64,000 nt of DNA, taken from Candidatus Poribacteria bacterium (lineage in GTDB: Bacteria > Poribacteria > WGA-4E > WGA-3G). Below the pieces are notes generated by a model. It was not told the origin of the DNA. It saw nothing but the letters and a program-made list of their open reading frames with translations, and did not search any database. Positions 1-34,190 of the stretch are shown here, piece by piece; within the stretch, counting starts at the first letter, position 1, and each line of letters begins with the position of its first letter. The translations under genes were made by a program, and so were the position numbers. The DNA lies in NCBI GenBank assembly GCA_965197475.1, contig CBDANF010000003.1:1344001-1408000 (forward strand), given 5' to 3'.

Positions 1-426
1 TACGAAACGGCCACCAACCAGATTTGCAGACTTCTGCCCATATACTACTACTTATGCTTTCCCGATTCGTACCAGATTCTGTTGTCATACGGGCATAGCA
101 ATAGGCTGAACCGCTGTAGAATTCCTTATTCTTTAGTTTCCCTTTAATACTACATGAAACGAGTGCTTCAGCATAATCGGCTGTAGCTCCTGCGTTGGGG
201 TAAACTGCGGGTGCTCCGGCATCGGTGTGTTCAAAGAACATCATTAAACAGGACTTACGCAATGTCTTCTTTTGTAGCATAACCTGTTAGGTTGTGCTAC
301 CAGAACGTCTGCGTTTTCCGAGACCCGCATCTAAACAGAACGAACTTCGCCCAAAACTGCGTAAGTCCTGATTAAAGTTAGGACCGCGATTAGCATTGCC
401 ATGGGGGGGAAAAATAGGTTTTCATC
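1..426 (-). pseudogene. Secreted hypothetical protein pseudogene (MITE insertion plus frameshift), runs off the window start
   Basis: SD AAGGAG then ATG at 426 gives MKNLFFPPMAMLIAVLTL. Removing the 249-370 MITE and one TSD continues in frame as MMFFEHTDAGAPAV. A frameshift near 140 (AAAGGGGAAAC) separates a further open frame (KNKEFYSGSAYCY...). Confidence 0.65.
249..370. mobile_element. 122-bp MITE with IS4-like TIR CAGGACTTACGCA and 6-bp TSD ATTAAA
   Basis: Perfect 13-bp TIRs; ATTAAA at 243-248 and 371-376; internal palindrome gtagcataacc-tgtta-ggttgtgctac. Confidence 0.9.
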
Positions 427-31287: not shown

Positions 31288-31522
31288 CAGGGCTATTTAG
31301 TTTTCGGTTTTTCTTATGATATTTATCACAAATGTTAATATTTTATGATAAGCAGAAGTAGCGTGATTTTTTACGCTACTTCTGCTATACTTCACCTTAA
31401 AAATCTTCCCTTTTTTGAGGTGAACCATGACAAGAAAATCTTCTTGCCACTCGATGGATATGTTAGCAGAAGTTCAAGACCTACGCAACAATAAAGGCAA
31501 ACGACACAGGGTTATTTAGTTT
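31288..31522 (+). mobile_element. ISAs1-like left end and transposase 5' remnant, followed by a second ISAs1-like end
   Basis: CAGGG(C/T)TATTTAGTTT at 31288 and 31507; ORF from 31427 MTRK...AEVQDLRNNKGKRH resembles the ISAs1 N-terminus. Confidence 0.6.
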
Positions 31523-31639
31523 CGGAATAAGTAGTTTTGGACATAAGAAAAACAGCATAAAATCAGACATAGACTGACATCGTAAGGGCTTCCTGACGAG
31601 GAAGATAATTGTTAGACCATTTCTTTTGATGGGAATTGG

Positions 31640-31762
31640 TTATAGATTGTGTTTAATCTTAAGTAGATAATTTTCAATAATCATCATAATTAAACGCGAT
31701 TCTATCACGTTTTGTCCTGCTTTTATTTCGTTGAGCAGGAACTGATTATTTTGGTTATACAT
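31640..31762 (-). CDS. Small 40-aa ORF inside IS1595
   Basis: AAGGAGGTGA SD, then ATG: MYNQNNQFLLNEIKAGQNVIESRLIMMIIENYLLKIKHNL. Confidence 0.5.
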   Translation of the reverse strand: MYNQNNQFLLNEIKAGQNVIESRLIMMIIENYLLKIKHNL

Positions 31763-31801
31763 AACTATCACCTCCTTTTATTTGAGTTAAAAGAGGTGGT
31801 C

Positions 31802-31863
31802 TAACAATCGCTTAACAATCGCTTAACAATCGCTTAACAATCGCTTAACAATCGCTTAACAAT
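31802..31863. repeat. 11-bp tandem repeat (TAACAATCGCT)x5 plus partial
   Basis: Read directly from the sequence. Confidence 0.95.
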
Positions 31864-31938
31864 TAAAGCATTAAAAAGGAAGTTAATCAAGAAAAAGTAG
31901 AAAAGTGCTGTAAATGTAGATGGTTATTGACTTTTTCC

Positions 31939-31967
31939 TTGATTTAAATGGTAAGAAATGGTATAAT
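31939..31967 (+). promoter_or_regulatory. Putative transposase promoter
   Basis: TTGATT-N17-TATAAT with extended -10 TG. Confidence 0.6.
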
Positions 31968-31974
31968 ATAGGCA

Positions 31975-32091
31975 AGAAAATAGGGGGCGGACACCCCCTA
32001 TTGAACCGAAAAAGCGGAGTTGCTTTTTCTAAGTTCTATCTTATCTATATCATATTAAGATAGTATAGCACAATCTTTCAGAATAAAGCAA
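31975..32091 (-). ncRNA. Predicted ~80-nt antisense RNA to the transposase leader (coordinates include its promoter)
   Basis: Minus-strand TTGCTT-N18-(TGc)TATACT at 32091-32062; hairpin AATAGGGGG..CCCCCTATT followed by TTC at 32002-31975. Confidence 0.4.
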
Positions 32092-32118
32092 CTCCTTTTG
32101 ACATATAGGAGTATTCTG

Positions 32119-33000
32119 ATGGATTTAATCAAGGTTATGGAGAGATTCCCAGACCAGTCATCCTGTATTGAGTATCTTGAGAAGATACGATGGAAAGGTA
32201 AGCCTCATTGCTCACATTGTGGGATTACCGATGTTTTCAGGCGTAATGAGACGGCAACTGGTCGGATTGGTCGTTGGAATTGTAATGGTTGTAAGGCAAC
32301 CTTCAAGGTTACTCAAGGCACAGTGTTTCACGGGGCTAAGATCGCACTTCAAAAGTGGTTTCTGGCTATTTCACTAATGGGAAACGCAAAGAAGAGCTTG
32401 TCCAGTTATCAGTTGAGTCGTGATTTAGACCTGAATCAGAAGACGGCTTGGTTTATGATGCAACGCATTCGTGCTGAAATGGCTACTAAAGGTCAAACTC
32501 TGCTGAAGGGTATTATTGAGGCAGATGAGACTTATATAGGAGGCAAACCTCGGAAAAAGAACAAGCGCGAGGACGATGAACCCGCCAAAAGAGGAAGGGG
32601 AACATCAAAATCCGCTATTCTTGGCGCAGTTGAGCGTGGAGGTAAGGTAGTAGCTAAACTTGCTGATGATTTAACGGGAAGGGGTATCCTGGCGTTTATT
32701 CGGGATGCTGTCAAAATAGATGAATCCGAACTGATAACCGATGAATATGCTGCTTACAATGAGATCGGAAAGCAGATAAAACATCGGGTTATCAATCACA
32801 AAGAACAGTTCGCTGATGGGGATACCCACACGAACACTATTGAAGGTTTTTGGGCGTTGTTGAAACGCGCATGGTATGGACAGCATCACCACTACTCTAC
32901 TGGGTATATCCCGCTATATGTGGCTGAGGCTTGCTATAAATATAACTACCGGAATGTGGATAGCATATTCTGGAAATTTGTTAATGAAAGTATGAGGTGA
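32119..33000 (+). CDS. IS1595-family transposase
   Basis: CIEYLEKIRW..PHCSHC, F....GTVFH..KI.L.KWF, IEADETYIGG, LITDEY, HTNTIEGFWALLKR. Confidence 0.95.
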   Translation: MDLIKVMERFPDQSSCIEYLEKIRWKGKPHCSHCGITDVFRRNETATGRIGRWNCNGCKATFKVTQGTVFHGAKIALQKWFLAISLMGNAKKSLSSYQLSRDLDLNQKTAWFMMQRIRAEMATKGQTLLKGIIEADETYIGGKPRKKNKREDDEPAKRGRGTSKSAILGAVERGGKVVAKLADDLTGRGILAFIRDAVKIDESELITDEYAAYNEIGKQIKHRVINHKEQFADGDTHTNTIEGFWALLKRAWYGQHHHYSTGYIPLYVAEACYKYNYRNVDSIFWKFVNESMR

Positions 33001-33004
33001 AAAA

Positions 33005-33145
33005 ATGACTAAAGAAAAACAAGTCTGCCAAGAATGTGGAAACAAAAAGGCCCGCCTACCTGTAAAAAAAACAGATGGTAGACCTATTGAACCAATTAAA
33101 GCAATATGGAATGGAAGATTTAGGGAATATATCCGAAAAAATTAA
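33005..33145 (+). CDS. Small basic 46-aa passenger ORF with CxxC
   Basis: GAGGTGA SD overlaps the transposase stop; MTKEKQVCQECGNKK... Confidence 0.45.
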   Translation: MTKEKQVCQECGNKKARLPVKKTDGRPIEPIKAIWNGRFREYIRKN

Positions 33146-33426
33146 GTGTTCGTCCGAGCAACCCTAATCATATCGTCTAAAGTTTCTATTGATACTTTTA
33201 AATCTGAGATGATATTTTGTATATCAGTTTGGAGATTTGGTGGAATTGCACCGCTTTCAACGATCAAACAGCATTTACAAAGTGGTCGAATCTGTAAGGC
33301 ACGGACATCTTTGGGGTTAATTTCTAATGCTGTTTCTACATAAGCGAGGGCATCAACAAAATTACCTGTTCTGAATTCATTGAGGCTAAGTCGGATTAAC
33401 TCAGCTGCTTGTCTGGTGGATTTCAT
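33142..33426 (-). CDS. Passenger protein with a TPR-like motif
   Basis: GNFVDALAYVETALEINPKD; ATG at 33426. Confidence 0.6.
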   Translation of the reverse strand: MKSTRQAAELIRLSLNEFRTGNFVDALAYVETALEINPKDVRALQIRPLCKCCLIVESGAIPPNLQTDIQNIISDLKVSIETLDDMIRVARTNT

Positions 33427-33437
33427 GGTTTTCTTCC

Positions 33438-33725
33438 CTATTTGTTGGCATGTTCGATTATAAACACGCCAAACTGATGTCGGATTTCTTTTGGCATTGA
33501 AGTGTCGAGGGTAGTCCACCCGAATTCTTGATTGGAAAGAACCCAATTTCTTAAATCTGAAGTGAGTGGATACAGGAAATGTTCGTTTTCAATAGCATTA
33601 ACATACATTTTCCACATCTTTTTAGTATGTTCATCGCTTGATTGATCCATCTTTTCTTTGTCAGCTCGAAGATGTGTTACCATAAAAAATACTACGATGA
33701 TAACAAAGACACTGAAAATTATCAT
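33438..33725 (-). CDS. Passenger membrane-anchored hypothetical protein
   Basis: N-terminal TM; SD-like AAGGGG. Confidence 0.6.
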   Translation of the reverse strand: MIIFSVFVIIVVFFMVTHLRADKEKMDQSSDEHTKKMWKMYVNAIENEHFLYPLTSDLRNWVLSNQEFGWTTLDTSMPKEIRHQFGVFIIEHANK

Positions 33726-33909
33726 ATTGTACCCCTTAAATTGTAGGTTTGGTCATCCAGTAAATCCCAACTTCTCCACAAAAGAAGTGGGCATCCCTGG
33801 TGACCAAACCATAACACCTAACTTACATTAGATATGGGATACCCATAGTCCAATGGTGTTATAGTTTGGTCTGTTAAGAATTCTACAATTTTAAGAAGGG
33901 GAATGTCAA
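33726..33909 (-). promoter_or_regulatory. Promoter and structured 5' leader with alternative folds
   Basis: TTGACA-N18-TAGAAT (33909-33880); segment 33801-33818 can pair with either 33855-33871 or 33746-33755. Confidence 0.55.
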
Positions 33910-33980
33910 GTTAAAGGTGGGAATTTTGAAAAAAGTGGAGAAAAAAATGAGAAATCTAATGTCCGAAACTACTTATTCCG

Positions 33981-34190
33981 TTGATTATTGTGATTGGAAT
34001 AGCGGCCACAACACTTGGGTGTGTCTGGATGGTTTTTTCTTTCGTTACAAAGGTAACTGGTGCAGGAAAAGGGGCAACTAAACGTGAGATAGATGCACTG
34101 CAGGAACATGTAAACCACATTCAGGAAGAAATAATCTCACTGAAAAAAGAGGTTAGACAGCTTATCCAGATCGCTAAAGGTAGCGAGTAA
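33981..34190 (+). CDS. Small TM + coiled-coil protein, probably 5'-truncated by IS1595
   Basis: Starts exactly at the TIR boundary. Confidence 0.55.
   Translation: MIIVIGIAATTLGCVWMVFSFVTKVTGAGKGATKREIDALQEHVNHIQEEIISLKKEVRQLIQIAKGSE

Follow-up and report, generated by a model that had tools for sequence, protein, structure and literature searches.

Within the 64,000-nucleotide stretch of Candidatus Poribacteria DNA analysed here (the window) lies an insertion sequence (IS) of the IS1595 family, in which a transposase gene on the plus strand converges with a small cargo operon on the minus strand (Table 1). The cargo operon is headed by a structured 5' leader RNA encoded just inside the right end of the element, and it is this RNA that forms the main subject of this report. 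Candidatus Poribacteria are sponge symbionts, and the genome concerned (G000) comprises 5.7 Mb in 3 contigs and is 92.7% complete. An earlier reading of the letters alone (the original prediction) had described the locus as an IS1595 transporter element with passengers and non-coding DNA, and the transposase domains, the ends and the extra open reading frames (ORFs) bear this out. Indeed, the transposase, likewise predicted to be of IS1595 type, scored above the cut-offs of the Pfam families DDE_Tnp_IS1595 (PF12762; 7e-35, 120.7 bits, cut-off 27) and Zn_ribbon_IS1595 (PF12760; 1.6e-10, 41.2 bits, cut-off 25.4, residues 11-60), and of the NCBIfam model for the IS1595 family transposase (NF033547; 190.8 bits, cut-off 75). 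The element therefore combines the features by which the family is recognised, namely a DDE transposase of IS1595/ISXO2 type, an N-terminal zinc ribbon and terminal inverted repeats. The latter had been given as 22 bp; inverted ends are present, at a length of 26 nucleotides (nt) and 92% complementarity, and identical ends delimit all five full copies in the same genome.

Table 1. Features of the IS1595-family element and its cargo (positions in the window; aa, amino acids; SD, Shine-Dalgarno sequence)
Feature	Position	Strand	Remarks
IS1595-family element	31523-33980		2458 bp
Left terminal inverted repeat	31523-31548		26 nt, 92% complementary to 33955-33980
Left module	31608-31808		20-nt inverted arms 31608-31627 / 31789-31808, 90%, around 161 nt
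Candidate 40-aa ORF	31762->31640	-	strong SD GGAGGTGA 5 nt before ATG; SD within predicted hairpin
Tandem array	31802-31863		11-nt unit TAACAATCGCT, 5.6 copies
47-aa ORF	31920-32063		overlies transposase promoter and leader
Transposase promoter, TTGATT-17-TATAAT with TG	31939-31967	+	10/12 matches
Transposase 5' leader	31968-32118	+	hairpin 31981-32000
IS1595-family transposase, 293 aa	32119-33000	+	Pfam and NCBIfam matches
46-aa ORF, not a gene	33005-33145	+	intact in window copy only
Passenger 2, 94 aa	33426->33142	-	near-orphan; weak likeness to a single tetratricopeptide repeat (TPR)
Passenger 1, 95 aa	33725->33438	-	near-orphan; N-terminal membrane segment
Structured 5' leader RNA of cargo operon	33726-33874	-	model R1 covers 33877-33787
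Hairpin P4	33800-33757	-
Long irregular hairpin P1-P3	33871-33802	-
Cargo promoter, TTGACA-18-TAGAAT, sigma70-like	33909-33880	-	faces inward; 11/12 matches
Right terminal inverted repeat	33955-33980		26 nt, 92% complementary to left arm

The original prediction had singled out three structured regions with promoters, stems and alternative pairings, and all three indeed fold better than their shuffles. Alignment and analysis of covariation separated them: the outcome was strongly positive for the right region (0/500 shuffles) and modestly so for the transposase leader, and the left region had no relatives outside the element's own copies. In the aligned copies of the right region, read along the minus strand, the promoter leads into a long hairpin in which compensatory changes are seen; an invariant junction connects this to a second hairpin, after which come an SD and the start of an ORF. 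The copy in the window folds with -60.4 kcal/mol, and the minus strand of 33715-33876 gave a z-score of -5.99, reached by 0/200 shuffles. RNAalifold, applied to 24 sequences, recovered 26 pairs, 12 of them with compensatory changes. An alignment of 30 sequences (A2) was then scored against a hand-written structure of 30 pairs using five measures and 500 column shuffles. Of its 890 cells 95.1% were paired, while 16 of the 30 pairs and 63 cells had changed on both sides, and 0/500 shuffles scored as high. Sliding the partners by 1-3 columns as a control reduced pairing to 24-52%, with no more than 4 double-change pairs. One inner helix (columns 31-35 with 56-60) was weaker, at 80.7% paired. Across the two genera represented, 21 columns are invariant, mostly in loops and the junction, and the invariant loop nucleotides of P1-P3 read GGGUAUCCCAUAUCUAAUG and AAUUGG. 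When model R1 was run on 18 loci, mostly from the second genus and mostly unused in building it, 20 matches were returned, of which 15 were distinct. In this second set (alignment A5) 93.2% of cells were paired and 13 pairs had double changes, again with 0/500 shuffles as high.

The strand and start of the RNA could be read from the same material. Cells with G.U outnumber those with A.C by 99 to 20, and sense matches to R1 scored 68-107 bits versus 27-31 bits for the two antisense matches; the structure therefore belongs to the minus-strand transcript. Promoter-like sites numbered 11 in the whole region, no more than in shuffles (mean 9.6). In 37 of the 43 distinct instances, a promoter of the form TTGnnn-16..18-[TG]AnnnT has its end 0-3 nt ahead of model position 1, versus 3% of shuffled upstream sequences, and this distance is kept even where the promoter sequence itself differs. 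We infer from this spacing that the RNA would start about 1-3 nt before the first P1 pair (G at 33871), with a predicted start at about 33873.

The second hairpin, P4, follows closely. Its 5' strand is the invariant CACCAGGGAU(A/G)CCC, to which a downstream segment, GGGUAUC...CUGGUGAC(C), is complementary. The energy of this duplex beats at least 195 of 200 shuffles in 26/40 instances (median z -3.06), and by our own reading P4 comes after P1-P3 in about 18 of 25 leader folds, with the two hairpins 0-2 nt apart. The lower stem of P4 takes the last 3-4 nt of the P1 3' strand. In the subgroup to which the window copy belongs the complement extends further (CUGGAUGACCAAACC), so as to compete with P1, and the minimum-energy fold adopts this alternative in 2/25 leaders. 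Leaders of the same subgroup also have an SD box, AAGGGGUAC, that is able to pair with the invariant GUAUCCC of P3.

An arrangement of two adjacent hairpins directly after a promoter brings to mind antitermination. The put RNA of phage HK022 is a cis-acting antitermination leader made of two adjacent hairpins, and like it the present RNA places two such hairpins right after the promoter, whatever gene lies downstream. By this analogy the hairpins might allow RNA polymerase to pass terminators, and foreign, AT-rich cargo as well as long secreted-protein genes would then be transcribed in full. Such action would not depend on the downstream gene or the spacer, and, as the genome has one NusG-family gene only, a factor-independent mechanism would be needed. 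However, the two were compared by architecture only and have no sequence likeness, nor does the leader resemble known families in sequence or by model; no downstream terminators were identified, and we regard what is a pure analogy as quite improbable.

Two further candidates for the right region were considered and set aside. A leader peptide was suggested by a 7-codon ATG frame at the invariant hairpin in the window copy; there is no ATG where the box reads TGCGGG (5/26 rows). An integron attC-like site was suggested by the ends of P1, which we take to bear a loose resemblance to attC core sites. ORFs lie downstream of this hairpin, a promoter precedes it at a constant distance, and it shows the excess of G.U noted above; an integrase was not searched for.

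Where, then, is the RNA found? A 281-nt query from the right region matched in 24/40 genomes of the genus at 73-93% identity, above that of the transposase gene (~70%) and often detached from it. Within G000 model R1 identified eight places, namely six copies of the element and the independent loci L112 and L119. In a sample of the phylum 34/151 genomes were positive: 20/38 and 13/56 in two genera of one family, together with G000 itself. None of 56 genomes from the 20 other genera had a match. Among 185,579 species-representative genomes, 28 stretches fitted a strict sequence pattern, 26 of them titled Candidatus Poribacteria and one 'uncultured bacterium'; a match in a metagenome-assembled genome of Desulfobacula was without the stems and was dismissed as chance. 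The pattern found 0 stretches in metagenome_contigs and 0 in viral_contigs, where an exact pattern would miss diverged relatives. Among the chromosomal instances, L112, L119, L068 and L057 have a second type of promoter (TTGCAAAATAGTGCTAAATGTGGTAAGAT-like), unlike the IS-borne TTGACAT...TAGAAT, and several of them also have a P1 variant (GACGAAAC/GTTTCGTC), which hints that there may be two subfamilies of the RNA.

The genomic context of the 43 instances was sorted into overlapping classes, using flanks of ~1.5 kb on each side for most loci and less in a few. An inward-facing IS1595-type end (<=4 mismatches in 20) precedes the RNA by 87-124 nt in 13/43, and by 326-1228 nt in 8 more. A convergent transposase gene or its remnant follows downstream in 9/43. 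In 10/43 an opposite-facing end is found 139-1579 nt downstream and the stored flanks gave no match to a transposase; such loci are candidates for derivatives without a transposase, and three of them, with ends on both sides, measure 368, 556 and 1519 bp. Duplication of 8 bp of target is a feature of the IS1595 family, and perfect 8-bp duplications surround three related RNA-bearing elements, L070 (3443 bp, ATATTTTT), L083 (2271 bp, AAGAAAAA) and L041 (2265 bp, TATAATAA); around L042, the transposase-less derivative of 1519 bp, the duplication matches at 7/8 positions. Finally, in 13/43 instances the stored flanks contain neither an IS end nor a transposase; the RNA of these loci lies in front of chromosomal genes whose products are exported. 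The RNA is thus not specific to the mobile element. At one locus (L128, genome G005) a tRNA gene at 1704-1777 reaches the Rfam gathering score (49.8 bits); the leader RNA of another RNA-bearing IS1595 element lies ~110 nt downstream of it, and on its other side is an IS-type end, 326 nt upstream of that RNA.

These contexts bear on whether the cargo transcript might serve the element itself, as a convergent antisense brake on the transposase or through a hairpin that acts as a single-stranded DNA site for cargo capture. The cargo operon and the transposase gene do converge, with 141 nt between their stops and no terminator-like site listed there; a contig from an RNA library spans 32953-33292, across this junction; and the cargo differs between elements that have the leader in common. 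However, that contig carries no strand information, the 13 instances without an IS end or transposase in their stored flanks are not accounted for, and both the fixed promoter distance and the excess of G.U fit an RNA that heads an mRNA. We consider this the least probable of the explanations discussed here.

A first ORF downstream of the RNA could be assigned for 29/43 instances, always on the strand of the RNA; it begins 122-219 nt after the RNA start in 27 of the 29, the two exceptions being at 319 and 372 nt. The remaining 14 have only short or doubtful ORFs nearby or were left unassigned. By Pfam, the chromosomal instances precede genes for leucine-rich repeat (LRR) proteins (L112, L068), LRR plus cadherin proteins (L053, L046), weakly metallopeptidase-like secreted proteins (L119, L052, L054, L056), a lectin-like Laminin_G_3 protein (L140) and an SNase nuclease (L048). 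Downstream of the IS-borne instances lie genes for small membrane proteins and other orphans, with one DUF805 protein (L069). A strongly hydrophobic window of 15 residues occurs within the first 70 residues of 24/29 first ORFs versus 12/34 long ORFs of the window, a comparison in which the background is crude and the 29 include homologues. Seven leaders, including that of the window, are alike up to the ATG, and the coding sequences part directly beyond it; by eye, they comprise at least four unrelated N-termini.

Some hints of expression came from contigs of four sponge metatranscriptome runs in one study, which cover 31520-31853, 32600-33050, 33064-33521 and 33559-33861. Three contigs end at 33841, 33858 and 33861, that is, 12-32 nt short of the predicted start of the leader, which we take as a weak hint that the leader is expressed. 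In 3/4 runs no contig lies on 31855-32600 (the transposase promoter, leader and 5' half of the gene), a gap that in itself proves nothing.

Taken together, these results are consistent with a model whereby the leader is a cis-acting, switch-like regulator of the cargo mRNA that responds to an as yet unspecified signal, a reading to which we assign a probability of about one half. The inward sigma70-type promoter would start a minus-strand transcript, the first ~115 nt of which would form the two adjacent hairpins, followed by the genes for the 95-aa membrane protein and then the 94-aa TPR-like protein. The near-terminal P1 hairpin would protect the 5' end of the mRNA. The base of P4, joined in the window's subgroup by the CUGGAUGACCAAACC segment, would compete with the P1 3' strand to give two exclusive states, and since the SD of this subgroup is complementary to the invariant GUAUCCC, opening or closing of P1-P3 would alter access to it. 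The state may be set by a small ligand, or by a protein, through recognition of the invariant loop; indeed, the invariant loops point to such a partner. The RNA has the conserved, covarying, aptamer-like fold with invariant unpaired nucleotides that is expected of a riboswitch.

A simpler possibility is that the leader senses nothing and is a constitutive module for expression or stability, in which a 5' hairpin blocks 5'-end-dependent decay and insulates the message, and in which invariance reflects recent descent and mobile spread. This would sit well with a P1 that begins about 1-3 nt from the predicted 5' end, with the fixed promoter distance in 37/43 instances, with the variable spacer to the SD and with the fact that many instances are IS-borne and therefore recently related. 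However, the stems have changed often (double changes in 16/30 pairs) while 21 columns have stayed invariant across two genera, which argues for constraint on the unpaired nucleotides and not for shared descent only, and a stabiliser would leave P4 and its competing segment without a role. We therefore think it unlikely, if less so than the antiterminator, and favour the switch-like regulator.

Several observations weigh against that preference. Between P4 and the start codon the instances differ in both length and sequence, the pairing of the SD with the invariant box is limited to the 7-member subgroup that includes the window, and no U-tract after P4 was found in the aligned copies or the 25 leader folds; neither of the classical riboswitch read-outs is therefore general here. 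The downstream genes suggest no ligand, export signals being their sole common feature. All sequences come from two related genera, and shuffle tests overstate significance for such kin; moreover, alignment A5 was fitted to model R1 and includes the two weak antisense matches and a few near-duplicates of training sequences. As to expression, a fourth contig passes through the promoter to the end of the element, and contigs from RNA libraries show neither strand nor true ends and may derive from DNA present in the libraries. Finally, the ~34 shorter IS1595 copies in G000 are not matched by R1, and the RNA is therefore not needed for transposition.

Three known kinds of partner were looked for in G000 and discarded. 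The junction CAGGGAUG resembles what we presume to be the CsrA consensus, and no CsrA domain was found; a specialised NusG paralogue of the RfaH/LoaP type was sought, and there is one NusG-family match only; and cyclic di-GMP (c-di-GMP) was considered as the ligand, and no GGDEF domain was found. At 92.7% completeness of the genome, none of these negatives shows absence.

The transposase gene has a structured leader of its own. A TGGTATAAT box is conserved in most of 27 aligned IS relatives, and most of these copies, from this and related genomes, share the order of TGGTATAAT box, a hairpin of GGGGG/CCCCC type, a GAGTTGCTTT segment, a variable inner hairpin, AAAGCAACTCC and the SD AGGAGT. In the window, GGAGTTGCTTT (32016-32026) pairs with AAAGCAACTCC (32085-32095), and the latter is also complementary to the SD AGGAGT (32107-32112). 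The plus strand of 31972-32130 folds with a z-score of -6.10 (0/200 shuffles). On 15 distinct IS leaders RNAalifold kept 15 pairs, 7 with compensatory changes, comprising the first hairpin (in which one pair has compensatory changes in 7 sequences) and a 10-bp long-range helix, the 3' strand of which contains ACUCC and can alternatively pair with the SD. These pairings suggest translational control of a kind that is ordinary among IS transposases; no paper describing such control in IS1595 was found in the literature listings.

The left region gave a different picture. Its sequence (31549-31870) folds with z-scores of -4.5 on the plus and -5.0 on the minus strand, and the stem had been proposed to be an RNA regulatory module. 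Comparison spoke neither for nor against this proposal, as stem and array occur only in the element's own copies within G000, and the region, which is lineage-specific DNA, was found in 0/39 other genomes of the genus. Relative to the window copy the four other full copies have +1, -1, +3 and -2 of the 11-nt units; as the number varies among near-identical copies, the array is unstable. It lies ~75 nt upstream of the transposase promoter, and its period is close to one helical turn. In the related elements L025 (genome G006, about 2700-2830) and L028 (G017, about 780-900) the place of the left module is taken by a tRNA-like stretch whose minus strand resembles a T-arm and acceptor. As ARAGORN detected no tRNA in L025, L028 or L001, the stretch is at best a fragment.

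The copies of the element speak to its recent history. G000 contains five full 2458-bp copies at 99-100% identity, which differ by four point changes, a one-base difference in the length of a poly-A run and the number of 11-nt units, as well as one copy split in two; the element is thus recently active. The split copy (L006 3448-4695; G000:C3 3354224-3355471) is interrupted by an IS3-type element with an HTH_Tnp_1 ORF and an rve integrase-core ORF, which has taken the place of the repeat array and the transposase promoter (element positions 275-512). A further 34 IS1595-type transposase matches, at 66-71% nucleotide identity and with several subgroups of identical copies, cover the transposase gene and its leader only. 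The genome is heavily colonised by the IS1595 family.

None of the copies in G000 has matching 8-bp flanks. Yet some flanks match between copies: TTGATTAT adjoins the window copy on its right and copy L004 on its left, and AAAACTTT is found to the left of L005 as well as to the right of L002. Swapped flanks of this kind fit 8-bp duplications followed by recombination between copies; repeat-induced misassembly would look alike. An ORF for a 69-aa membrane protein at the right end of the element (window 33981-34190) seems short of its first codons, and the left flank of L004 (G000:C3 near 1597241, 221 kb away), which ends in ...ATGACAACCACATTGATTAT, joins it in frame via the common TTGATTAT. The in-frame join suggests either that IS copies have recombined or that the repeat was misjoined. 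On the left side, a 16-nt motif, CAGGG(C/T)TATTTAGTTT, adjoins the element (31507-31522) and recurs 219 nt upstream without an element (31288-31303); near-identical ...ATTTAGTTT flanks lie beside two other IS1595 copies (L017, L020). The recurrence suggests that the motif may be a preferred, repeated target sequence.

Four small passenger ORFs had been predicted in the element. Those of 95 and 94 aa stand, and are spaced by 11 nt. The 46-aa ORF is frameshifted in the four other full copies by one extra A in a poly-A run at element position 1541, and is therefore not a gene (one RNA-library contig likewise has the extra A that breaks it); the 47-aa ORF overlies the promoter and leader of the transposase. 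Passenger 1, with a hydropathy value of 3.42, belongs to two protein clusters only in a search of 5.8 billion proteins, and has a homologue, 58.5% identical, in a transposase-less element of G017. Passenger 2 also belongs to two clusters only in that search; its score against TPR_2 (23.6 bits) is below the cut-off of 27, and a relative, 27% identical, is the second cargo gene of the RNA-bearing element L083. The candidate 40-aa ORF is without relatives and without a Pfam, NCBIfam or PADLOC match. The 95-, 94- and 40-aa products matched no Pfam or NCBIfam family above cut-off, PADLOC assigned 0 families to the four element proteins tested, and neither two protein searches nor an Atlas search (best score 0.85) gave a lead to the function of the cargo. 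The original prediction of an RNA-regulated mobile module for addiction or defence has therefore fared unevenly. Its RNA-level part is borne out by the covarying family, the 13/43 instances inside IS ends and the 8-bp duplications of related elements; a role in addiction or defence finds no support, given the lack of PADLOC matches and two passengers that are near-orphans.

How does this compare with what is known? IS1595-family insertion sequences with passenger genes are the 'transporter IS' of ISfinder. The present element resembles these in its zinc-ribbon and DDE transposase, short inverted ends, extra ORFs and long non-coding DNA, and in the 8-bp duplications of its relatives. It has in addition a conserved promoter and leader RNA at a fixed place inside the right end, common to varied cargo, which to our knowledge is not a feature of described members. 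Literature searches found no description of a structured leader RNA in the IS1595 cargo slot, and we know of none for a conserved leader RNA as a fixed part of the cargo slot of any transposable element. RNA-level control of IS transposases is itself familiar from the leaders of IS10 and IS200. ISPpu9 is reportedly regulated by two small RNAs and a structure in the 5' untranslated region of the mRNA (PMC8450116). The transposase leader here is alike in having a conserved hairpin and an anti-SD segment that pairs with either the SD or an upstream segment. In contrast, it belongs to another IS family and is known from sequence, and the more striking RNA heads the cargo and not the transposase.

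Riboswitches of the c-di-GMP classes sit upstream of genes for surface or secreted proteins. The cargo leader shares with them covarying stems around unpaired nucleotides that do not vary, a downstream part that does, and a position ahead of adhesin-like, peptidase-like and membrane protein genes, but differs in that there is no Rfam match, no GGDEF found in the genome, and no conserved terminator or general SD sequestration. Indeed, none of the 4227 families of Rfam 15 matched inside the element at E up to 1; on 33690-33930, a limit of E up to 10 admitted only microRNA models of hairpin type and a molybdenum cofactor (Moco) model at 11 bits; only one tRNA reached a gathering score across the window and 19 RNA-bearing loci; and the RT-12, Mahella-1 and mcrA models gave no match. 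A 'Poribacteria-1' RNA motif, a candidate structured RNA, was reportedly named from the same phylum by Weinberg et al. in 2017. The word 'Poribacteria' does not occur in the main text of PMC5737381, and name searches gave no papers. If the motif is in Rfam 15 it is not this RNA; if it is outside Rfam the two may be identical, which would lower the novelty of the RNA and not that of its link to IS1595.

The findings can be joined into a broader model, which we hold tentatively and think doubtful as a whole. An IS1595 subfamily in sponge-symbiont Poribacteria would carry at its right end a mobile slot, composed of a promoter and a sensing leader RNA, to which varied cargo is fused at the start codon. 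Transposase-less and miniature derivatives would spread the module, and the same RNA would control chromosomal LRR/cadherin and secreted peptidase genes, so that one signal would co-regulate host-interaction genes and mobile cargo. Such an element might be called a transposable riboregulator.

Transporter insertion sequences and structured 5' leaders are each already known. What seems new is the combination, in which a structured leader is fixed in the cargo slot of a transposable element and is common to chromosomal genes for eukaryote-like exported proteins. On a more modest reading, too, the RNA constitutes a new family that is well supported and whose strand, start and genomic context are clear. 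Since the RNA also heads genes for eukaryote-like surface and secreted proteins, which are thought to mediate the interaction between sponge and symbiont, a leader that senses a signal would offer a testable handle on the regulation of host-interaction genes in an uncultivated symbiont, and would show a regulatory RNA spreading by transposition.

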